Below are positions 16,423 to 64,000 of a stretch of DNA of 64,000 nt, piece after piece; the first letter of the stretch is position 1; the number at the start of each line of letters is the position of its first letter. The notes beneath the pieces are model-generated. The model made no database searches. It worked only from the letters and a program-made list of their open reading frames with translations, and was not told where the DNA came from. Source of the stretch: a virus; IMG/VR virus record IMGVR_UViG_3300010367_000050, positions 16,509-80,508 of that record; one strand, 5' to 3'. The position numbers were made by a program, and so were the translations under genes.

Positions 16423-16821
16423 CTACAGAGAGAATTGAACCTGCGTGTTTGCTGTGGACTCCGTAAAGTCCGGATTGATAACTGTGTAGTTGATGGTGAT
16501 ATTGAAGTTGTTGGAAGTATCTGTATCAATGGTTATGTCAGACGCTTCAACCTTGACCCTGGGCTCCCATTTCTTGATAGCTTCCAGTATTAGGTTTGTA
16601 ATCAATTGCTTGGTCGAATCCGAGGTGTCCTCAAACTGCATACGGCACACGCGGCAGCCGAATGTGGGATTCCAAGGACGCTCTCCAGGAAACGTTTGGA
16701 GAATCTGCAACAATGAGGAGTTGATCAATGCAATAGTATTATTGCGGACATAGGTCAACCTGCCTACCGCAGCCTTGCTGATCATCGGAAATGGGAATCC
16801 AGACTGTTGACTCAGACTCAT
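16423..16821 (-). CDS. gp25/GPW-like baseplate protein
   Basis: ILQTFPGERPWNPTFGC...IKKWEPRV. Confidence 0.93.
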   Translation of the reverse strand: MSLSQQSGFPFPMISKAAVGRLTYVRNNTIALINSSLLQILQTFPGERPWNPTFGCRVCRMQFEDTSDSTKQLITNLILEAIKKWEPRVKVEASDITIDTDTSNNFNITINYTVINPDFTESTANTQVQFSL

Positions 16822-35902: not shown

Positions 35903-36476
35903 GGTCACCCCCATTCCAATCTCTTGGATAAACAAGAAGGCCAAGAAGACCTTGATAAAGATGTATGGCAAGCAGAGACTCATGATACAAGCGTTGCCCA
36001 ACATCGTGAGTCCTGATGACTTCCCCCACCAGGCCTGTTTCGATGTGGAATTCATGATAGCTCTGCTCAGCCATGGAGCGTGGATAACCAAGGATTGGAA
36101 ACCGTACGCCAGGTACACCATAGCACAAAGACTCAAGACCAACAAAGAGGCAATATTCGTTGAACCCTTTGACAAGATAGCTGATGACTTCTTGAACTTC
36201 CAGCTATACGGAGGCACATTCCAGGCCGCAGCAGCCCTCCGCAAACAAGCTGTTGCTACCATGAAATCTGGCGGAAGGACAGCAAGACAAATGGCTGCGG
36301 CCAAGTTGATACTGAGTACCATGGATGAGATACAATTCAACACGTTGGTCCAACCCTTTCACTGGATACGACTGGCTAAGGCTGTGGAAGAACAGTGCCC
36401 TGTCTATTCGCTAGCAGCCTACGCCATAGAGAAGCACAAACAGAAGTTGACGCTTGTAAGGCTGTTACAGTCCTAG
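35895..36476 (+). CDS. Hypothetical protein
   Basis: 193 aa coupled to the HTH gene. Confidence 0.7.
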   Translation: MAKVTPIPISWINKKAKKTLIKMYGKQRLMIQALPNIVSPDDFPHQACFDVEFMIALLSHGAWITKDWKPYARYTIAQRLKTNKEAIFVEPFDKIADDFLNFQLYGGTFQAAAALRKQAVATMKSGGRTARQMAAAKLILSTMDEIQFNTLVQPFHWIRLAKAVEEQCPVYSLAAYAIEKHKQKLTLVRLLQS

Positions 36477-37816
36477 CCTTCAGCCATCAACATCTCTTGT
36501 CTCTTGGTCATGACAACCTTTTGAGCTTGTAACAGACTCTTGGTCTCAAACGAGAGCCGTTGCTGTATATCTGTCAATACCACAAGATTCCTGCTGGTGT
36601 TGAACTTGCCAAAGGGCTGCTTGATGTCAGATAGGAACGCAGATACAGTAGCCTTAGCAGCTGATTCTGTGCCTCCGAACCTATCCTTCACCTGCTTGAC
36701 CAAGTCATTCCGGGTGCACTTACCTGTAACAATCAGCGTGTAAATCAAGCTGTTTCTACAGCCCAATTGAAAACCCATGCTATCTGTGTTTCCAAGACGA
36801 CGCCGGGGTGGAGTTTTGCGTTCTCCAAAGGATGGAATGGGTTTCTTCTTGATCTTCTGAGACTCTGCGCTCTCGTATCCAGGTATTTGATCCAAGCTAA
36901 TGCGTTTGGACACAAGCTCCCTGTACTCATGGTCTGTATGAAGCTTGTGTAGGCAGGTCTTATACACTGCCTTGATACCTTCAGGACTAATGTTGTGTTT
37001 CTTGGACAAGGTTGGGCCACAAGTCCAATCTCGGGACAACGCCTTGAGTATCTCCAAGTCCCTGTCGATGGCATCAATCTGATCCACAGACGGCACAGTA
37101 AAGGTCAGTCCACCAAAGAAGTGTATGAGTCTTTCAAATGCCCGTTCTCCAAGCAGTCCACGTAACTCTGGAATCATGGAATGCTTGAACCTGTTGGAGA
37201 ACATCTTGTCGTCCCTGACTGGCTTCACTCCCTTGGAGTACTCCGTGCGGAGAGTCACCAACACATGGTCTAACAGGAATCTGGCGTGCTTTGGGTTGAC
37301 GTCGAAGCCCTGGACCACGGTTTTCAATACTCGTGTGCGGTTACTCTCGAAATCATTGGAACTAAGAACGCCGAATACATATTTTGCAGCCTCCTCTGCA
37401 CCCGGTTCGGTTCTCAGCTTCTTCAAGGTTTTGTCACTAAGTTCCAGCTGAGGTATCTCATGGATGTTAGCCTTGGAGGGTTGGGCTATGGCGTCGAACT
37501 CGTACTCATCAGGGGTCCGCTTGTGATCCAGAGGTCTCAGTTTAGCCTCATACCACAGAGCCCTCTTGATGACTTGAGTGGCATATACGAACAGGTTACC
37601 CTGATTGGGATTGAATTGATCGATAATGTCTCCACACTTGATCAGTGCGATCTGTACCAAGTCATCTTCTGACTGGTTACGCTGGTCATACACAACATTG
37701 TTGCGTGCTATGTTTTGTATGAGTGGGACAAAATGAGGCAGAATAGCCTCTTTCCGCATGCCAATTCCAATCATGCGGGAGACCTTATGTGTATCAAATA
37801 CGTCAGGATGCTTCAT
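36473..37816 (-). CDS. Multi-domain regulator: sigma70 region 2-like + Mor-like + paralogous C-terminal domain
   Basis: PLIQNIA...DDLVQIALI...FNPNQGNLFVYATQVI (sigma r2); RLIHFFGGLTFTVPS...RDLEI...LSKKHNISPEGI (Mor-like). Confidence 0.7.
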   Translation of the reverse strand: MKHPDVFDTHKVSRMIGIGMRKEAILPHFVPLIQNIARNNVVYDQRNQSEDDLVQIALIKCGDIIDQFNPNQGNLFVYATQVIKRALWYEAKLRPLDHKRTPDEYEFDAIAQPSKANIHEIPQLELSDKTLKKLRTEPGAEEAAKYVFGVLSSNDFESNRTRVLKTVVQGFDVNPKHARFLLDHVLVTLRTEYSKGVKPVRDDKMFSNRFKHSMIPELRGLLGERAFERLIHFFGGLTFTVPSVDQIDAIDRDLEILKALSRDWTCGPTLSKKHNISPEGIKAVYKTCLHKLHTDHEYRELVSKRISLDQIPGYESAESQKIKKKPIPSFGERKTPPRRRLGNTDSMGFQLGCRNSLIYTLIVTGKCTRNDLVKQVKDRFGGTESAAKATVSAFLSDIKQPFGKFNTSRNLVVLTDIQQRLSFETKSLLQAQKVVMTKRQEMLMAEG

Positions 37817-37822
37817 GATCGG

Positions 37823-38239
37823 CTACCTCTTCTCAGACGGAACAACCGTGGGATTGCTCGACAAGGCATCCAACTTCTCTTTGGCCCTTGTTCTGAGTGT
37901 GTCGTTCAGCTTCTCTGACTTCTTGAAATGCAGGATAACGCTGGGTTTGCTCAAGTATCGAACGCCCTGCGTGCGGTTGAACCGCATCCTGGGGGCCAAC
38001 TCACGAGCCTCAAACTTTCCAAGACCTTTGAGTTGTACGCTGTAGCCCTCAGCAAGAGCGTCAATCATACCCTCAATCAAAAGACGGGTGGCTCTGGACA
38101 TGGCTACTGATGACACGCCATACCGCTTCGATACCCAACGGGCAAACTGAATGTTAGAGAGGGTGACTTTTCCAGGAAGGATTCGTGTTACAGGCTTATA
38201 CGGATCTGGCACAGGGATTCTCCAATCACCACTAAGCAT
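37823..38239 (-). CDS. HU/IHF-family DNA-binding protein
   Basis: ALAEGYSVQLKGLGKFE...FKKSEKL. Confidence 0.88.
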   Translation of the reverse strand: MLSGDWRIPVPDPYKPVTRILPGKVTLSNIQFARWVSKRYGVSSVAMSRATRLLIEGMIDALAEGYSVQLKGLGKFEARELAPRMRFNRTQGVRYLSKPSVILHFKKSEKLNDTLRTRAKEKLDALSSNPTVVPSEKR

Positions 38240-38887: not shown

Positions 38888-38973
38888 AATCTCCTTAGAA
38901 GTTCTCAGAATGGAGATAAACTCAAAGCTTTCCTTGAATTATAACGTCCGATACTCTAATAGCCGGAGGTAAC

Positions 38974-39537
38974 ATGAATGCTGACGAAATGAAAGCTCTG
39001 CGTAATGCTCGCAGAGAGAAGTGGGACATGAGGTTTCTCCAGATGGCCTGTATGCTAGGCAAATGGAGCAAAGACCGCAGTGATCGCACTCCTGGGGTTG
39101 GGTCCGTTATTGTCGACCGATCTACTCTGCGAGTTGTGTCTGTTGGGTACAACGGGTTTCCGGCAGGGATCAACGATGATATAGCCGGACGGCACGAGCG
39201 TCCAGAGAAATACCAGTGGACCGTTCACGCTGAAGCCAACGCTATTGCCGGAGCAGCACAACTTGGAATTCGCCTGGCTGGAACCTCACTCTACAGTACA
39301 CAAATCCCATGCTCAGGTTGTATGGCTCTGCTTATTCAAGCGGGTATTCAATTTGCCATATTTCCCAATTTCACTGATCTTCCGGAGAAATGGTTACAAG
39401 ACTGTGCTATTTCTATACAAATGGCCCAAGAGGCAGGAGTGATAACAAGAATCTATGAGTCAATCGCGCCAATATCTATTGAGCATCGTCGCCCAACTTC
39501 CGGAACACTTCAGAAAGCTTTGTCGTCACGTAGTTGA
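38974..39537 (+). CDS. dCMP deaminase
   Basis: GYNGFP, HAEANA, PCSGC. Confidence 0.93.
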   Translation: MNADEMKALRNARREKWDMRFLQMACMLGKWSKDRSDRTPGVGSVIVDRSTLRVVSVGYNGFPAGINDDIAGRHERPEKYQWTVHAEANAIAGAAQLGIRLAGTSLYSTQIPCSGCMALLIQAGIQFAIFPNFTDLPEKWLQDCAISIQMAQEAGVITRIYESIAPISIEHRRPTSGTLQKALSSRS

Positions 39538-44378: not shown

Positions 44379-44475
44379 CGTCTATTGGGCAATTTTCCAC
44401 TAAAAATTTTATTCAACATTACCTCCTGTCTACAAGAAGGAGTTAGTCTATCCCCTAGAGGGAGAGGAGAGTGAG

Positions 44476-44700
44476 ATGACTGTTGTGAGTCCCAATCCCG
44501 TTGTGGTTGTGTCTGTTATGGGCGTTGTATTGTCCAGTCTTGTCCTTTGTGCCCGTGGAATTCATATGGCAGTGACAGATTGGCCCAATACCCGCCATGT
44601 TGTACGGATTGTGTTCATCTTGTTGGTGACACTGTTGTCAGTTTTGTTATTGGATGTGTTTGTCATTTGTTGGCATAGTCTTGTGGGGATACAGCAGTGA
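44476..44700 (+). CDS. Small two-TM membrane protein
   Basis: Two hydrophobic segments; GAGGAG SD. Confidence 0.55.
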   Translation: MTVVSPNPVVVVSVMGVVLSSLVLCARGIHMAVTDWPNTRHVVRIVFILLVTLLSVLLLDVFVICWHSLVGIQQ

Positions 44701-44887
44701 TTGACAAGGCGTATCCACGGTTGAAATCCATAATGACAGGCAAGTGGTATGTTGTACTTATGAAGCGGCCACGGTGGTCGTGGGAAACTACTGGAGCTTG
44801 GAATGTCTATGGAGTTAGCATGGGCATTCGCACATCGCTATCTGTACGTGCAGCGTAGTACTCCCCCTAGGGAAGAGGGAGGGAGCC

Positions 44888-45094
44888 TTGGGAAATAGTA
44901 TCAGCGCTGTATCAGTTGCAATGGTAGCGTGTACGGTGTGTGCTCTCTTGTCTGCTAACACGGCTTCACGCCTGTACAAGAGAGGTGGAGACGGTATGGA
45001 CGCTTGGATTACAGTTACAGCGATCATGTTGATGTCTGTCTTTGGCTTTGCATCCTTGTTATTGATGGGGGCGGTGTTGTCGTTATGTCTGTGA
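44888..45094 (+). CDS. Small two-TM membrane protein
   Basis: Two hydrophobic segments; purine-rich SD-like run. Confidence 0.45.
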   Translation: MGNSISAVSVAMVACTVCALLSANTASRLYKRGGDGMDAWITVTAIMLMSVFGFASLLLMGAVLSLCL

Positions 45095-45781
45095 ATAGCT
45101 TGATCTGCACGGTTGGAGTGGCTTCCTTGGGTATCCTGTTGGAGAGTCGTGTCTTCAAGGACAGGGTGCTTGTCTCCATGGATGTGTTGTGTGTTGTGGC
45201 TATGTTGTTGCTCCTGTCGTATTGGAGCCTGGTCCATTCTGCTATGCATGTTTGTACCGAGTTGTTGTGGAGGATATATGTGGCTCTTGGGTGATGTATT
45301 GGCGTCTTATGTCAAAATTTGTGTTTGCGAGGTTGGGCAGCCAGTTTCCGCACGTCCTGAGTGCTGAGCCTGGGAGGCCATGGGGAGGTGTGGGGCCCCT
45401 TGTGTGCTGTGTGTCAGCGGCTGTGCTCCGATGCATTCAGTCAAGCTACAAGCACAACAGACAACTGGGCACGTGGGAAACAACCTCAAAGCCCAGAGAC
45501 GCAATCCTACGGAGGGGATTCTAGGGAGCAGGTGCTGTTCTCTGGACTTGTCTCTATGGGAACTGTAGGGACTATCAGGACTGGTCTCTGCTCCCTCCCT
45601 AGGGGCTTTCTAGAGCAATACACAGACGGTTGTGGGTCCCAGTTACAACAAGGAATGGACTAGGTGGGATTCTCAACACGAGGCTGTACTCTCCTGTGTT
45701 CACTCCCATGCGTCCCTCCCTAGGGGTAGCTAGAGGGTATTTCTAACAGTACTTGCAGACGCTGGTCAGTTCTGACAATAC

Positions 45782-45804
45782 AAAAGGCACCCCGAAAGGT
45801 GCCT
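45782..45804 (-). terminator. Terminator closing the minus-strand early operon
   Basis: Minus strand AGGCACCT-TTCG-GGGTGCCT-TTT. Confidence 0.8.
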
Positions 45805-45830
45805 AGTGGCGCTGCGATCTGAGCTGTGTA

Positions 45831-46107
45831 CTATAGGCTGGGCGTAGTTCGTCCAGCTGTAAAACTGCAATGGTTGCCCGTTCCGATGGGATGCCGATGG
45901 CCGCAATAGCAAGGATATGTACTGTTGATGTGCGCCCTCATGGCGATGGCTGTGTTGACTGCGTCTTGCGCGTCATTCGTGAAGTAGACCGCTGGATGCT
46001 GCCAACCTTTGTCCCACTCTTGGAGACGTACCTGGAATTCCCCTTCGACGACTCGGATAACTTACGCCGTGCTCTTTCGCGATTGCTTTTGCCTGAGCCT
46101 GTGTCAT
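45831..46107 (-). pseudogene. Hypothetical gene with one apparent extra base near 46062
   Basis: GGGAG SD; MTQAQAKAIAKEHGV joins VIRVVEGEFQVRL...YFTNDAQDAVNTAIAM in the +1 frame; span is 3n+1. Confidence 0.55.
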
Positions 46108-46136
46108 AAATGTCTCCCTGCCGCGTTCCTATCGGA

Positions 46137-46232
46137 CTAAAGGTTGGAGGCTTCGCTGAGGTTGGACCGTACTTCGAGGGTTACAAAGACGGCTGCGATG
46201 ACGATGAGGTATGCGATAAAAAGGTGTTCCAT
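46137..46232 (-). CDS. 31 aa single-TM peptide
   Basis: AAGGAG SD; MEHLFIAYLIVIAAVFVTLEVRSNLSEASNL. Confidence 0.6.
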   Translation of the reverse strand: MEHLFIAYLIVIAAVFVTLEVRSNLSEASNL

Positions 46233-46292
46233 AAAATTGTCTCCTTTGAGCTTTGAGGGACAGGGGAGTCGTACGGACCTCCCCTCCGGACC

Positions 46293-46877
46293 CTACTTGA
46301 CGCTGAGGTTGTACTGCGAGAGAACCTTGGCGTACTTCCCGGCTTGGCGCTTCGGGCTGATACCGCGAAGGTCTTTGAGGATTCCCTTGCCGAGGGCCTC
46401 TACTGCCTTGTTGAGGGATTCGTCCTTGACGGAGATGACTCCGCTGTCCTCGTTGACGTTGAGCTCCAAACCGCGTGAGGCGTGATAGGTACCGATCGAA
46501 CGCTTGATGTCGCTGAAGAATACGCTGGCCGTGGTCTTCTTGCGGCGGTTGTCTCCGTCCGTACCGTCGCTGAACTTTGCGAGGAAGGAGTCAATAATCT
46601 CCTTCTTGGTCGAAGTACCGGCGATGAGGAGTTCGCTGAGGAAACCCGTTTCGGTGGCCGCGCCGAATCCGAGTGCGTTGAGCTCGCGTGCCGGAGTTGC
46701 TTCCGTGGTGGTTTCGGTCTCGGTGGACTCTTCGGTAGGCGCGGGTGTCTCTTCCGGGGTTACGTTGACCGGAACGAGTTCGTTGGACTCGACGGTATCG
46801 ACCGTTTCGATGGTCTCTTCCGCTACGGCTACGTGCTGTTCGATGCTCTTGGACGACTTGCGAATCTTCTTCGACAT
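46293..46877 (-). CDS. Early protein with acidic N-terminal arm; paralogue of 52338..52913
   Basis: AAGGAG SD and own promoter; GF...TET...FSDIK...GTYHASRGL. Confidence 0.85.
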   Translation of the reverse strand: MSKKIRKSSKSIEQHVAVAEETIETVDTVESNELVPVNVTPEETPAPTEESTETETTTEATPARELNALGFGAATETGFLSELLIAGTSTKKEIIDSFLAKFSDGTDGDNRRKKTTASVFFSDIKRSIGTYHASRGLELNVNEDSGVISVKDESLNKAVEALGKGILKDLRGISPKRQAGKYAKVLSQYNLSVK

Positions 46878-46970
46878 TTTTGTTCTCCTTCCCCGGTATC
46901 CGCCGGAGTTCGGGTTAGAGGTTTCGCGTGGACTTCGGTTGCTTCCGTTGCCCTTTCGATTACAAATACA

Positions 46971-46999
46971 AGGTTATCGTAGTTTCGGACTAAAGTAAA
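46971..46999 (-). promoter_or_regulatory. Sigma70-like promoter with upstream A/T tracts
   Basis: TTTACT-N17-TAACCT. Confidence 0.65.
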
Positions 47000-47843
47000 G
47001 CGAAAAACGAACTATTTTTCATTTATTTCGTCAGCGGAAGGGTCCGAACTGCCGCGAACGTATCGGACTATATAAGAGAAAGAGACCCACCGATTGCTCT
47101 GAACCCATCCTAGCGCGATTACGGGGTATTCTCATTTCACCACGCTTACCCTTGGAGACTAGCCTTTGCGTTGCACCTAGGTGTATCCTAGACGTATATG
47201 GTTTTTCATAGATTTTTGAAGAGTCTATGGGATATGAAAGCCACCTATGAGAAATGGTATCACTATTAGGAACTGGCGAGACGGTATCGGACGTTTATTA
47301 ACGCCCATCTCCATCGCTCATAGAGAATCGCCGTTCGCTAATGCGATTCGCCAAATGCCATTCGCCAATCCTCATTCACATCGGTCATACGCGCAGGGCC
47401 ATTTTCAACGCCCAGGCCGACTGGCTCTACGCAAATTGCGTAGACTAAAAAGTGGATAACATGTTGTGATGGGGAGGGCTTTGTAGCGTCTCGATCTAGG
47501 GAAGTCTCCGTGTCCGATAGAGTCCCGAGCCTTGAGGAACCTTACAGAAGAGTTTTCTCTGAGAATCGCGGAAACTTTTTTCGAGGGGTAAGAGATGTAC
47601 TCGGGATAACTTGTCGAAACCAAGATGCAAGCTTCACGAGGTCTTCGATTGTAGGATACCCGCGTTGACGTACACAGAAAGCGCAGTAAGCAAATCCGCA
47701 GCGATTCTTCTGATGATCTCTCCACATAGCCGGATAGTCATTCTGTAACTGTTCCTGCGTAGGCTCCGGGGCAGCATTTGAACTACAATTCTTCAGGTCC
47801 ATCGCTCTCATTCTCTTATGGGGGAGGTGGTTTATTTTTGAAA

Positions 47844-52337: not shown

Positions 52338-52913
52338 CTACTCACCAACCTTGGGGAGCTTGAACTTCTTGATTACTGCAGCAACCTTCTCGGGATGCTT
52401 CTTGAGGGTGAAGCCTTTGAGCTCTTTGAGCACGCCGTTCTTGATTGCTGACTTGATCAGCTTGGTGCGATCGGGATCAAGGGAAAGCTTGCCGCCGTCG
52501 CCCTCGACAATAATCAGGCCACGAGATGCGTGGTAGGTTCCCCACTGCTTGCGCACGTCGGACAGGAAGACGCCAAAGGATATTTTCTTGCGCTTGAACC
52601 CGCCTGGGTCCTTGGACTCAGGGCCAGCGAATTTCTCCTGGAACATCTTCAGCATCTCATCCTTGGTATACTCGCCAGTAGAGAGCAATCCAAGCAGATA
52701 GCTGGTCTCAGTGTTCTCACCGAACCCAAACTCATCGAGTTCTCCAAGTGCCTTGAAGGGCTTGGCCTTCTCAGCCTTTGCCGTTGTGACGGCCTGTTCC
52801 ATCTCTTCCACAGCAGAAGGCGGAACTTCGGTTGGGGTTGCGTTCTTCTTGATTGCAACCTCGTCAGTAAGAATGCCAGCTTTCTTGGCACCCCTTGGTG
52901 TCTTCACTCCCAT
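52338..52913 (-). CDS. Paralogue of 46293..46877
   Basis: GFGENTET...FLSDVRK..GTYHASRGL; AAGGAG SD. Confidence 0.85.
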   Translation of the reverse strand: MGVKTPRGAKKAGILTDEVAIKKNATPTEVPPSAVEEMEQAVTTAKAEKAKPFKALGELDEFGFGENTETSYLLGLLSTGEYTKDEMLKMFQEKFAGPESKDPGGFKRKKISFGVFLSDVRKQWGTYHASRGLIIVEGDGGKLSLDPDRTKLIKSAIKNGVLKELKGFTLKKHPEKVAAVIKKFKLPKVGE

Positions 52914-58690: not shown

Positions 58691-58976
58691 GTTCCAGCCG
58701 TTTCATATCCAAAGTGAGGAAAGCTGCTGCCAGAGCTAGATTTTCCAAGACGGTTGGCCGTAAGTCATACGGAGGAAGACAAGCTGGATACCTGTCAAAC
58801 GCCATGAGCACGTAGTCCTCGGTGTTGCCGCGTTCCTGTCTGCGAGCCGCTTCGATATGACACTGTGAGGCAAACTCCAACTCGCCAAATTGGAACTTGG
58901 ACACATCACCATCAGGGATTGTGTAGCACAACAGATTGTAAACGTAACGATGTACAAGTGCTTCAAGGTTAGTCAT
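58680..58976 (-). CDS. Hypothetical protein
   Basis: GGAG SD before MTNLE; ENLALAAAFL pattern. Confidence 0.6.
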   Translation of the reverse strand: MTNLEALVHRYVYNLLCYTIPDGDVSKFQFGELEFASQCHIEAARRQERGNTEDYVLMAFDRYPACLPPYDLRPTVLENLALAAAFLTLDMKRLEHAA

Positions 58977-59203
58977 GGCGTCTCCGTTTCTCTGAGTTTG
59001 TTGTACAAATCCTTGCCTGGCCTCTCCACCCCGATGCTGCGAGCAAACCGGCTGGATAGTGAGAACCCGATTCCCTGTTTGCGGACCCAGGTCACCCACT
59101 TTCCATAATGATCAATTTGTTTGGCTGCTGCTGTCATTGCTTGAGTAAGGGGCGTTTCATGGCTCTTTACTGCTCTGCGACACGGTAATGCGATCTTGTT
59201 CAA
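58973..59203 (-). CDS. Hypothetical protein
   Basis: AAGGAG SD; promoter-like TTCGCT-N16-GATACT at 59252-59225. Confidence 0.55.
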   Translation of the reverse strand: MNKIALPCRRAVKSHETPLTQAMTAAAKQIDHYGKWVTWVRKQGIGFSLSSRFARSIGVERPGKDLYNKLRETETP

Positions 59204-59259
59204 CTCCTTGCACCCTCCATTCTTAGTATCTCTCGGACGGCCTCTCAGCGAAAGGTCTG

Positions 59260-62205
59260 TTACGCTAACTTGGCGATACCATCCACCTTCTGAATAACAA
59301 TGGACTCGTGTAGCATCTTGTTCAATCCCGTGTGACTCGTGAGATAGATCGTCAACTTGAGTTCACGGGCAAGCTCTTGTATCATGTCTAACACGGTCTC
59401 CAACCCGGTTCCGTCCAAGGTGTCTAACGTTTCATCTAACAACATGATGTTGATGTTACTTCTGCTATGGGCTATCTTGAACAGAGCAAGCATAACACAC
59501 AGATCAATACGACGTTTCTCACCGCTGGAGTTACCCCCATACACGTCAGAGCCCATTTCATTCCAAGCCTTGATCTCAAACTTGTCCTTGGCAGCTGACT
59601 CCTTGAACGTTTGGAATTCAATAGTTACAGAGCCACCGCTCAATTTGGATGAGAATTCGTTGGAGTACTGTGTCAGGTCCGGTATAATCTGATCCAACAA
59701 GAAGCTGCGAACTCCAGAATTACCAAAGACGTCAGTCCAGAACTCCAACTGACTAACCTGCGATTGTTGAGACGAGACCTTCTTGGTCCCATACTCAATG
59801 TCAGTTTTCAACGTATCAACATCAAATTGAACCTTGGCTACCAAGCCAGGATACGGGTTTACAGGGGCAGCATCCAAGGCTTTCTGAATACCCGCTATGG
59901 CTGCTCTGGAAGTGCCCTGCTTGAACTCAGCTGAAGATATTTGCCTGCGCTTGTCCTCGATCTCACGAGTCAACTTGTGTATCTCTTCTGTGAGCTCCGT
60001 CTGACGTGCTCTCTGTTCTTTCATGGTAGTAACAGCAGAGTTCAGGTCTACCAATTGAGCCTCCAACTTAGCACGAGCGTCAGTGAGGGTCTTGCGCTCT
60101 CGTTGATACGCAACAATCATCTTGCCAGTATTCGCCACAGCCTGACCGCAGGTAGGACAAGGTTTGCCTGCTAAATTATTGGCTTTGTCGAGCTTAGACT
60201 GTATCTGATCTGTGGAAACTTGGTTTGCCTCTATCTCTGTGGACTTGGACGAAGCCTTAGCCCTGATATCGGCCCAAGCTTCATGATCAAAAGGTTCAAA
60301 TTCAGCCTTCTTAGTCGTTAGCTGCGACTCTAAGCCAGCAATCTCAGTCTTGTACTTTTCAATAATGGCATCCAATATACCTATGTTTGTGTTGTGTTCC
60401 CCAATCTCTTCCTGGAGTTCAGACACGCGGGCCTTTTCCGACTTCTCCCAGTCCAAGTCTTCTCTCTGATATTCCTCCAGAGTAGCTGTCGCGCGGGAAA
60501 GGTTCTCCACCTTGCCGTTTAGCTCCGTAGCGGTTATCAGGAGGTCTTTTCTGACGTCCTTGATGATCTCCTTCGCTAAGGCTCCAGCAGCGGTAAACCG
60601 GCGGGTCTGAAGGATAGAGTCCAGAATTTGCTTCTGATTGGCGTCAGTGGAGCTAACAAACTTGAGCGCATCCGGTGAGAACGCGACTACAGAACTGAAT
60701 GTCTTGAAATCGATTCCAAGCTTCTTGTTGATTTCAGCCTGCGTGAGGTCCGTTGTACCCAGGGTCGCCCGTCCCTTGTTTACATACAGTTCAACTCCGG
60801 TTCCACCATACTCCTTGGACTTGCGGAATCTAATGATCTTCACCAAGTCACCGCCAATACGCAGGGTTGTCTCCACCTCACAGTTACGGCCGACTTTTCT
60901 GTTGATAACCTTGTCCGCAGGTACATTCCTGGCAGTCTCGCCGTATAAGCACCAGAATATGGACTCTGGGAGAAACGCCGATTTTCCAGCGCCATTGGAG
61001 TCAAATCCTTCACTGGACAGATTCTCTCCAACAACTCCAATGACACTTCCGGGGTAGTCCAGCTTGAGCTCGATCTCACCGATGGACATAAAGTTGCGCA
61101 CCTTCACCTTCAGCAACTTGACGTGAGCATTAGCTGATCCAGCGGGAGCAGCGCTATTCAATAGTTGCCTGCCAATTTTGATCCATTTCTCAGGCTTGTT
61201 GTGATACTTCAGGAACTCCTTGAGTATGTCTATATCAGACATCGACTCGTTCAATTCAATCCTGGCCTTGGCAGTCGTAGCCTTCCTGGAAGCTACAATC
61301 TTAGCATGTAGATTCAGTTCAGACACGACCTCTGTTACTCGTGATAACAGCAAGGGATTGTCTATGACAACATCCAAATAGTGGAGTTGAAGGGCTTCCT
61401 CATTGACAGACTCCAATAATTCCGTGGCAGTGATCGATCTGAACTGCTTACAACCCGTCTTGTAACTCTTCACGGTTCCGTCAGCATACAACATCTGCCA
61501 ACGCTTTACTTCTTGAATCTCTCCACGATTTATTTGTGTGAGTGAGCCAGTATACCAAACATTATCAGCCATTTTCTGAGGCTTGTGATAGTGACCAAGA
61601 AATACTGCCTTGAGCTCGGTGTGACGCAAGTCTTCGACCTTGACGGGGTCTTTGATGACATATTCCACTGGGCCAATAAATGCCCCATCAACACCGATGT
61701 GAGCAAATAACAAGTCAGGCATGCCATCCACGTCCAACCTCTGAAGGCAGTGAAGTATGTCCTTGTGAGACGACATGTACGGTATCACGCCGCATTGCCA
61801 ACCAGCTATCTTATCAATACATTGGGTGTCGTACACCTGTACAAGCTTCCTCAACCCGTAGATTGAATGGATAGCCCCGGCTTTGTCCATCTGGTCGTGA
61901 TTGCCGGTGTTGATATAGACGGGAAGCTCGTACTCTTGGACTACTTGTTCCAATGCCCAATACACATACTGGAACACGTCAACAGAAATGCTCCCCCGGA
62001 CGTGAAACAGATCGCCGTTGATGAAGAGAGCATCAGCGCCCAGTGACTTAGCGCGTTTGGCGACATACAAGAACACATCTAACTGGTCGTTTAGCCTGGA
62101 GTTGATCGGAGTTCCGAGTACTGGATGCGTTATAGTCCTGGCGAATTCAGGGAAATCGTGGAAGTGCGGGTCAGCAATAATTGCTATGTTTCCTAATTGT
62201 CTCAC
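59260..62205 (-). CDS. SbcD/Mre11 nuclease fused to SbcC/Rad50 ATPase (gp47-gp46-like)
   Basis: ADPH, GDLFH, GNHD, GHYH phosphoesterase motifs; then VRNFMSI, NGAGKS, coiled coil with CPTCG hook, SSGEKRR, LLDE, SH. Confidence 0.93.
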   Translation of the reverse strand: MRQLGNIAIIADPHFHDFPEFARTITHPVLGTPINSRLNDQLDVFLYVAKRAKSLGADALFINGDLFHVRGSISVDVFQYVYWALEQVVQEYELPVYINTGNHDQMDKAGAIHSIYGLRKLVQVYDTQCIDKIAGWQCGVIPYMSSHKDILHCLQRLDVDGMPDLLFAHIGVDGAFIGPVEYVIKDPVKVEDLRHTELKAVFLGHYHKPQKMADNVWYTGSLTQINRGEIQEVKRWQMLYADGTVKSYKTGCKQFRSITATELLESVNEEALQLHYLDVVIDNPLLLSRVTEVVSELNLHAKIVASRKATTAKARIELNESMSDIDILKEFLKYHNKPEKWIKIGRQLLNSAAPAGSANAHVKLLKVKVRNFMSIGEIELKLDYPGSVIGVVGENLSSEGFDSNGAGKSAFLPESIFWCLYGETARNVPADKVINRKVGRNCEVETTLRIGGDLVKIIRFRKSKEYGGTGVELYVNKGRATLGTTDLTQAEINKKLGIDFKTFSSVVAFSPDALKFVSSTDANQKQILDSILQTRRFTAAGALAKEIIKDVRKDLLITATELNGKVENLSRATATLEEYQREDLDWEKSEKARVSELQEEIGEHNTNIGILDAIIEKYKTEIAGLESQLTTKKAEFEPFDHEAWADIRAKASSKSTEIEANQVSTDQIQSKLDKANNLAGKPCPTCGQAVANTGKMIVAYQRERKTLTDARAKLEAQLVDLNSAVTTMKEQRARQTELTEEIHKLTREIEDKRRQISSAEFKQGTSRAAIAGIQKALDAAPVNPYPGLVAKVQFDVDTLKTDIEYGTKKVSSQQSQVSQLEFWTDVFGNSGVRSFLLDQIIPDLTQYSNEFSSKLSGGSVTIEFQTFKESAAKDKFEIKAWNEMGSDVYGGNSSGEKRRIDLCVMLALFKIAHSRSNINIMLLDETLDTLDGTGLETVLDMIQELARELKLTIYLTSHTGLNKMLHESIVIQKVDGIAKLA

Positions 62206-63778: not shown

Positions 63779-64000
63779 TGGTCGTCTCCAGATGCTGAAA
63801 TGGTTGAATGAAGGCTGTGAAGTTTGCCAGGATGGACGCGAACTGATGCCGGGCAAGATTTGTGCGCACGGTCATCTTGTTCAAGCTTCCCATCCGGTAC
63901 TCGATGTCGTGAGATTGATAACAGTGGTGGCACTCTCCACACAGAGACACTAGCTTTACACTTTTAGCTAGTTAACCAATCCCGGCGTCACAGAAAACGA

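Follow-up and report, generated by a model that had tools for sequence, protein, structure and literature searches.

We analysed a 64,000-nucleotide (nt) stretch of viral DNA (the window; positions 16,509 to 80,508 of IMG/VR record IMGVR_UViG_3300010367_000050), which is part of a single contig of 80,508 bp, and found that a unit of about 1 kb on its minus strand, built around a gene that we call g1, has been almost stripped of the dinucleotide TG. The depletion is far beyond chance, and the evidence supports selection on the dinucleotide as its origin, acting over a self-contained unit with its own leader. The genome encodes a 5-hydroxymethyldeoxyuridine (5-hmdU) DNA kinase pathway, and in other phages the products of such pathways are found at TG. 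This makes the mark that the phage puts on its own DNA the likelier target of the avoidance, and we put the probability that the g1 unit was cleared of the phage's own modification sites at roughly 60%. The parts of the unit and two related copies of the g1 domain are listed here in window coordinates, which are used throughout unless L002 is named.

46105..47088, minus strand: the TG-poor island, or unit (leader, g1, hairpin and 31-amino-acid (aa) open reading frame (ORF)), delimited by TG counts and CA-free gaps
46293..46877, minus strand: g1, 194 aa, marked by its TG count and a predicted winged helix
46878..47088, minus strand: leader with the presumed promoter, poor in TG and CA alike
46137..46232, minus strand: hydrophobic 31-aa ORF 3' of g1, read from its translation, with the ribosome-binding site AAAGGAGA
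46261..46284, no strand assigned: hairpin with 7-bp G+C arms and a 10-nt loop, read from the sequence in the gap between g1 and the 31-aa ORF
47049..47070, minus strand: upstream copy of a 22-nt direct repeat (TAGTCCGATA..CGCGGCAG), at the 5' island edge
46118..46139, minus strand: downstream copy of the same repeat (TAGTCCGATA..CGCGGCAG), at the 3' island edge
46983..46990, minus strand: core-motif copy GTCCGAAA in the leader
52338..52913, minus strand: g2, a paralogue of g1 (33% identity) with normal TG content (40 TG), used as control
36515..36820, minus strand: third occurrence of the g1-type domain, forming the C-terminal end of the 447-aa ORF 36473..37816

The coding sequence of g1 carries 3 TG on its sense strand over 585 nt, where base composition predicts 22.9 (observed/expected ratio, o/e, 0.13), namely the start ATG, one junction between an ATT and a GAC codon, and one TTG. 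When the g1 protein was encoded with the codon usage of the genome, 31.4 ± 4.2 TG were obtained, with a minimum of 17 in 2000 resamplings. Shuffling synonymous codons within the gene gave 8.5 ± 1.9 TG, and three or fewer in 0.15% of the shuffles (p 0.0015); since the observed count lies below this expectation, TG is avoided across codon boundaries as well. The product contains no internal Met, Trp or Cys, CTC accounts for 13 of its 15 Leu codons, half of the third codon positions (50%) hold C, and CG is more frequent than expected (o/e 1.39). In g2, by comparison, 40 TG are present (o/e 1.25), together with 3 Met and 1 Trp. The loss hits all 16 NTGN contexts, which identifies the dinucleotide itself as the avoided unit. 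The three longest plus-strand gaps without CA in the window (283, 206 and 125 nt, the next being 117 nt) lie end to end at the island, whose o/e is the minimum reached by any dinucleotide in any 600-nt segment of the 80.5-kb genome.

The depletion continues beyond the coding sequence in weaker form. Minus-strand TG occurs 5 times in the leader against 15.7 expected (P 0.0017) and 4 times in the stretch with the 31-aa ORF (46105..46292) against 14.0 expected (P 0.0018), the ORF itself holding a single TG besides its ATG. For the whole unit the count is 12 against 73.4 expected (P 8e-19), and three of these 12 belong to start codons. On the sense strand of g1, the complementary word CA is in excess (48 versus 35 ± 4 expected), whereas in the leader minus-strand CA is as low as TG (5 versus 15.7). 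Elsewhere TG is common: the o/e is 1.17-1.33 for the capsid, portal, terminase, sheath, g2 and HU-like genes and 1.23 genome-wide, the remaining genes range from 0.73 to 1.65, and no other depleted gene was found in the 80.5-kb genome. An earlier sequence-only reading of the island had described most of this pattern, and its counts for g1 and g2, the missing residues, the skewed Leu codons, the cross-codon avoidance and the spread into the flanks were all reproduced; its claim of strand specificity stood for the coding sequence and fell for the leader. It had also proposed a codon shuffle, a comparison with highly expressed genes such as the capsid and a look at homologues as checks, and neither the shuffle nor the comparison refuted the TG deficit of g1, while the homologues showed the same avoidance.

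Judged from sequence comparison, TG avoidance is a trait of the gene family. The family set consisted of 45 proteins, g1 and 44 cluster representatives from an exhaustive search. Codons for Met, Trp and Cys must contain TG, and those for His and Gln must contain CA. Internal Met, Trp and Cys are missing from 15 of the 45 proteins, g1 included; seven of the 45 (172-224 aa) also lack His and Gln, and four more keep just one conserved His. P0008, encoded on a 45.5-kb contig, is an example of the relatives free of all five residues, a loss whose chance for one 190-aa protein is about 2e-6, given that normal members carry these residues at 6.7% combined. One relative, P0002, is 69% identical, and relatives at 30-50% identity keep the purge. 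Purged relatives come from other samples and need not share a host. In a maximum-likelihood tree, purged proteins are dispersed over well-supported branches, the state must have changed at least 6 times, and some sister pairs are in opposite states; the purge therefore follows the resident genome and not protein function. An equivalent contrast exists inside the phage studied here: g1 is purged, g2 and the third domain copy are not. The sole homologue whose DNA was read is L001, a metagenome contig of 1405 nt with 51% identity over the last 75 residues. Its first 866 nt contain 2 TG and 4 CA against 43.5 and 64.9 expected, one of the two TG being an ATG start, and within these 866 nt lie the gene end, a 66-aa ORF that lacks Met, Trp, Cys, His and Gln, and 340 nt of non-coding DNA; past position 866 the TG and CA content is normal or high. 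Such clearing of both strands, non-coding DNA included, favours, across the whole family, a reader that acts on DNA.

The genome is that of a myovirus, with genes for sheath, tape measure, major head protein, protease, portal and large terminase, and it is distant from all GenBank phages, the best terminase identity being 38%; an SbcCD-like nuclease and a ligase are encoded as well. The stretch was recovered from four soil-metagenome runs of one study, in which all contigs were identical and showed neither variants nor molecule ends; no RNA run containing it was listed. Just before the window lies a complete thymidine-hypermodification cluster (core genes L002 7964..13750), which also contains an HD nucleotidase; its genes, the polymerase next to it and two further genes in the window are:

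L002:8562-9707, minus strand: thymidylate-synthase homologue (PF00303, E 1.3e-23), by sequence a putative dUMP hydroxymethylase
L002:11095-11781, minus strand: 5-hmdU DNA kinase P-loop protein HMUDK_HMUD1 (PF18748, E 1e-18)
L002:10106-11095, minus strand: kinase-family helical protein HMUDK_hel (PF18723, E 6e-65)
L002:11762-13750, minus strand: GATase-ADDT/aGPT-Pplase fusion (PF18724, E 1e-25; PF18746; GATase domain)
L002:4710-7373, minus strand: family A DNA polymerase adjoining the cluster
38974..39537, plus strand: dCMP deaminase (PF00383, E 5e-17), the likely feeder of a dUMP-to-5-hmdUMP route
37823..38239, minus strand: HU-family DNA-binding protein (PF00216, E 2e-10)

The cluster thus holds the gene set by which 5-hmdU hypermodification is recognized, a thymidylate-synthase-family enzyme, 5-HMUDK and an aGPT-Pplase/amino acid:DNA transferase, and a NUDIX protein is encoded in the window. 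The nearest known kinases are those of the Bacillus phages SP-10 and YungSlug (about 31-35% identity), and kinase relatives occur in 496 phage records, ViI and SP-10 included. The N-terminus of the family A polymerase gives a weak uracil-DNA glycosylase (UDG) match (PF03167, E 8e-4, below the cut-off); UDG-fused phage polymerases are reportedly described in a 2025 preprint.

In other phages with this pathway the marked word is known. Restriction-resistant sites of M6, ViI and phiW-14 carry TG or TC, and the purified M6 kinase modifies TG (PMC6449724); in Acinetobacter phage SH-Ab 15599 nearly every TG site is occupied (PMC13458397); and in the Pbunaviruses F8 and 14-1 the hypermodified T stands in a TG motif, these phages being targets of END nucleases, which sense such DNA and act early and against which phages carry inhibitors (PMC12191111). 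If TG is protected, only 6-bp palindromes without TG or CA should be purged by restriction. In M6 the median o/e of 6-bp palindromes was 0.0 without TG/CA and 0.72-0.98 with them (p about 1e-5), and in AIIMS-Plu-RaNi (RaNi) the values were 0.06-0.10 and 1.02-1.13. In the genome studied here the corresponding figures, which differ in the predicted direction, were 0.35 versus 0.92 under a base-composition null (p 4e-4) and 0.57 versus 0.79 under a dinucleotide null (p 0.16). TTAA occurs 6 times in its 80.5 kb (o/e 0.02 by composition, 0.05 by a Markov model), at window positions 66, 9910, 26971, 47298, 56758 and 63972; AGATCT, CCCGGG, CTCGAG, CTTAAG and TTTAAA are absent genome-wide, and several other 6-bp palindromes occur 1-3 times, a sign that restriction sites are strongly avoided, for the most part those that lack TG and CA.

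Partial counterparts of the island were seen in two phages. In phage 14-1 (L007, NC_011703), whose TG marking has been established by experiment, the unannotated gap between gp75 and gp76 (58910-59898) contains two adjacent strand-specific arms, one (58910..59267) with 2 plus-strand CA, the other (59420..59898) with 7 plus-strand TG versus about 30 expected and with CA in excess. Microbacterium phage Morrigan displays a mild two-strand dip in gene 35 (L005 23475-24326), with 9 TG and 11 CA per 400 nt where about 29 are expected; Morrigan carries a match to the kinase-family helical protein that is annotated as an aGPT-Pplase1 domain.

The g1 protein is probably a DNA-binding winged-helix protein, as predicted by structural modelling. 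A short basic N-terminus and an acidic, disordered linker or arm precede a folded C-terminal domain, for which the AlphaFold model has a predicted local distance difference test score (pLDDT) above 90 at residues ~65-190 and the order H-H-H-E-E. All its top structural matches are winged-helix DNA binders (E2F-DP, FOXP, histone H5, Fur and ScpB), but the scores are modest (VIA Z 5-6), with Foldseek E-values of 0.27 or higher, and the Atlas structural neighbours are OmpR-type, WYL and DeoR regulators (TM 0.4-0.5). Neither Pfam nor PHROGs returned a family match for g1, and neither g1 nor g2 matched anything in Pfam, PHROGs or PADLOC and hence any known defence or anti-defence family there. Searches of 50,697 phage records by tblastn with g1 and by megablast with the island gave no match, and scans of IMG/VR with g1, alignment A1 (the alignment in which the identity of g2 to g1 was measured), P0008, the 447-aa regulator and the portal gave no relative. 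The domain copy in the 447-aa ORF was seen by profile comparison only (hhalign probability 98.6%, E 1.2e-15, residues 333-434), BLASTP of g1 against this ORF returning nothing; the gene is not purged (TG o/e 1.31). In two relatives, P0026 and P0030, the winged helix is fused to a NucS_C (PD-(D/E)xK) nuclease domain (E 1.5e-8 and 3.9e-8), so that the g1-type domain also serves nucleases as a part for DNA binding or sensing.

The reading that we favour, clearing of the phage's own modification sites, would work as follows. T would be replaced by 5-hmdU during replication, the 5-hmdU DNA kinase would phosphorylate 5-hmdU within DNA, and the amino acid:DNA transferase would then attach a bulky group. 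With hypermodification at TG, a TG-less strand would escape the phage's own mark and would remain ordinary DNA inside an otherwise marked chromosome. As to its purpose, we tentatively suggest, at less than even odds, that g1 codes for a DNA-binding regulator whose transcription has to proceed on incoming DNA that carries all its marks, or has to be independent of marking. The strand that matters would then be the non-template strand, with which RNA polymerase makes base-by-base contact at Y-G steps. The consensus elemental pause sequence, G-10 Y-1 G+1, involves the core recognition element, through which the polymerase reads these non-template steps at pause sites, and a bulky T at non-template TG could matter there. 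The purge covers the leader, the gene and the ORF as one unit and follows the sense strand, which fits a purpose in expression; a special expression status of g1, early or protected, as the sequence-only reading had suggested, is a reasonable reading.

Several observations weigh against this explanation. That TG would be the marked word in this phage is argued from its pathway genes and from other phages. The palindrome test was significant only under the base-composition null, and TGCA itself is avoided. M6 and RaNi share the pathway and have no TG-free island, so the pathway is not always accompanied by islands. On the cleared strand TC, the second context of M6 and ViI, is enriched (o/e 1.9), and the kinase would therefore need to be TG-only. 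The high sense-strand CA count of the coding sequence means that its template strand would still be densely marked, and a simple picture of a polymerase blocked by marks does not predict one-strand clearing there. A reader of RNA would be just as compatible with a cleared stretch that tracks the presumed transcript, and the early timing of g1 is presumed: the gene may be early.

An RNA-level cause is nevertheless rather improbable. On that account the mRNA would avoid UG because of a UG-reading endoribonuclease, as the sequence-only reading had offered as one option, or would shed alternative NUG starts and UGA. The sense-only clearing of g1 along the presumed transcript speaks for it, and so does the share of start codons among the TG that remain (3 of 12 in the island, 1 of 2 in L001). 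No bacterial RNase that simply cuts at UG is known to us. In the relatives, CA is removed no less strictly than TG, with His and Gln lost, 340 nt of non-coding L001 DNA are cleared, and the leader studied here is low on both strands; a reader of RNA only would leave the CA and non-coding clearing unexplained, and the TG-directed DNA-marking pathway would become a coincidence. Escape from nucleases, an alternative purpose under the same cause as in the favoured reading, stands only slightly higher in our estimation and is still improbable: the unit would be kept mark-free so that END nucleases or type IV enzymes cannot cut an urgently needed gene, or g1 would shield or mimic marked DNA. Early-acting END nucleases against TG-hypermodified phages and phage inhibitors of them do exist (PMC12191111), the fold of g1 is used by nucleases, as the NucS-type fusions P0026 and P0030 illustrate, and g1 has a long acidic arm. 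A 1-kb clearing, however, leaves the other 79 kb unprotected, the coding sequence would keep one marked strand, g1 resembles neither a PADLOC model nor any known inhibitor, and gp88, the gene for such an inhibitor in 14-1, is not depleted of TG (o/e 0.91).

The mechanism first proposed for the island, a host defence that reads asymmetric CA-containing motifs on a supposedly first-entering segment (type I/III restriction-modification, BREX, Ssp CCA), is probably wrong, and we consider it very unlikely. The phage is indeed under strong restriction pressure, as its rare TTAA and its five absent 6-bp palindromes indicate, but a motif of 4-8 bp cannot account for TG loss in all 16 contexts, and the purge is limited to 1 kb of a genome that is otherwise rich in CA and TG (o/e 1.22-1.23) and retains about 6000 CA outside the island. 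Moreover, the same purge is found in relatives from other samples, which need not share the host. Somewhat less remote, yet still quite unlikely, is a further purpose within the favoured reading, namely that the cleared DNA is a region for protein binding or unwinding, such as an origin or a regulator platform based on the motif GTCCGAT, which would need unmarked DNA and would merely have the gene inside it. In its favour, GTCCGAT occurs 9 times in L001 (0.29 expected), 4-5 copies bracket g1, the 22-nt repeat marks both island edges and the encoded protein is a predicted winged helix; GTCCGAT contains neither TG nor CA and hence needs no clearing, a one-strand purge of a coding sequence is ill suited to a duplex-binding site, and GC skew has no origin-like turning point at the island. 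Least credible of all is that TG was not selected against, and that recent transfer, expression-driven C-ending codons or a mutational bias produced the pattern. The C-rich third positions and raised CG would agree with such a bias, but the within-gene shuffle, the depleted non-coding flanks, the relatives at 30-50% identity that keep the purge while sister proteins differ, and the undepleted capsid and other structural genes, usually highly expressed, all speak against it.

Two further candidates were rejected. A-to-G/T-to-C hypermutation, considered in view of the raised CG, fails because relatives at saturating divergence keep the purge with their proteins conserved. Oxidation resistance as the reason for the loss of Met, Trp and Cys fails because synonymous and cross-codon TG and non-coding flanks are cleared too, and because sisters differ.

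Within the unit, an AAGGAG ribosome-binding site precedes the g1 ATG. In the leader, minus-strand TG is absent from 46878..46962 and plus-strand TG from 46963..47049; the cleared strand seems to switch near 46963, which at such small counts is a hint only. A -10-like hexamer, TACGAT, at 46976..46981 would place the transcript start near 46963, and a scan of 45800..47600 found no sigma-70 consensus promoter and no intrinsic terminator. The hairpin behind g1 is not followed by a T-run and was not called a terminator by the scan. Similar G+C hairpin-like elements centred on CCCTAGGG lie between small plus-strand ORFs at 44450-44470, 44860-44885, 45590-45615 and 45705-45735. The two copies of the 22-nt repeat agree at 18 of 22 positions, and 13 bases of the upstream copy, counted from GTCCGAT, recur in L001 (594-613); the repeat could represent promoter or operator sequences or the ends of a mobile cassette. 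The core GTCCGAT(A/T) stands on the g1 strand at 47292 (47285..47292, minus strand), 47068, 46990 and 46137, and also in two other intergenic regions, at 38946 (plus strand) and 35641 (minus strand), and every copy is preceded by an A/T-rich stretch. Our guess is that GTCCGAT(A/T) is a promoter or operator element of this phage group, and it is likewise a guess that g1-type winged-helix proteins possibly bind this motif.

At the 3' island edge, ORFs overlap on opposite strands (45973-46107, minus; 45870-46109, plus); the minus-strand ORF, of 44 aa, has a GGGAGA ribosome-binding site just past the repeat, and over its final 45 nt TG reappears. The plus-strand TG maximum of the genome lies at 44743-45443, some 1 kb away from the island, with 78 TG per 500 nt where the mean is 39 ± 7; three small plus-strand ORFs for hydrophobic peptides (44476..44700, 44888..45094 and 45004..45294) are found in this TG-rich stretch, which would be the most densely marked one if TG is the marked site. 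A 76-nt element is present at both contig ends (L002 1-76 and 80430-80506, the latter being window 63922-63998) with 85% identity; the two copies do not form an exact terminal repeat and would be neighbours on a circular map.

The unit shares features with several known systems. The enzyme families encoded here are the same as in the TG-hypermodifying phages M6, ViI, phiW-14, SH-Ab 15599, F8 and 14-1, and the word purged here is the word that those phages mark (PMC6449724, PMC13458397, PMC12191111). In those papers marking is genome-wide and no cleared gene unit was found described, and a full-text literature search found no paper on gene units cleared of a modification site. As in restriction-site or palindrome avoidance, which this genome also displays in its classic form with six TTAA and several missing 6-mers, a short word was removed by selection at a cost in codon choice. 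Classic avoidance, however, is genome-wide and symmetric and concerns one host site of 4-8 bp (at least 4 bp, on both strands), whereas the island lacks a 2-bp word over 1 kb and on one strand, and the likely reader would be the phage's own enzyme. A further parallel is offered by ACA-less mRNAs that resist the MazF endoribonuclease, in which, as in g1, one gene lacks a short word on the sense strand and bends its codons and amino acids accordingly; sense-only clearing is seen in the g1 coding sequence; the leader, L001 and 7-11 of the relatives clear CA too, non-coding DNA included, which an RNA reader does not explain. With T7 gene 0.3 (Ocr), an anti-restriction gene on the leading end that is expressed first, the unit shares the idea of a small, self-contained early unit whose product is needed before the remaining genome is exposed, and no similarity of sequence or fold; to our knowledge, Ocr is not noted for word avoidance. 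Vertebrate CpG islands, as an analogy only, are unmarked stretches at gene starts in a genome marked at one dinucleotide, but they keep the site and exclude the enzyme, whereas in the g1 unit the site itself is deleted.

Thymidine hypermodification has so far been studied as armour against restriction enzymes. A unit unable to receive the mark implies that the mark carries a cost or has a signalling role in the infected cell, and that phages manage it gene by gene, under pressure strong enough to strip amino acids from proteins. For uncultured phages, sequence alone can then be used to predict the context of an unknown modification, the genes treated as special and the strand that the cell reads. 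More speculatively, and in our view unlikely though worth stating, bulky TG marks would slow transcription, or another process that reads single strands, in a strand-specific way. Part of the expression programme of T-hypermodifying phages would in that case be encoded as TG density, units run from marked parental DNA would be rewritten without TG on the relevant strand at a cost of up to five amino acids, and the g1-type winged helix would act as a pioneer factor or else would read or shield the marked DNA. If so, phage base hypermodification would be a regulatory, epigenetic-like system besides an anti-restriction coat.

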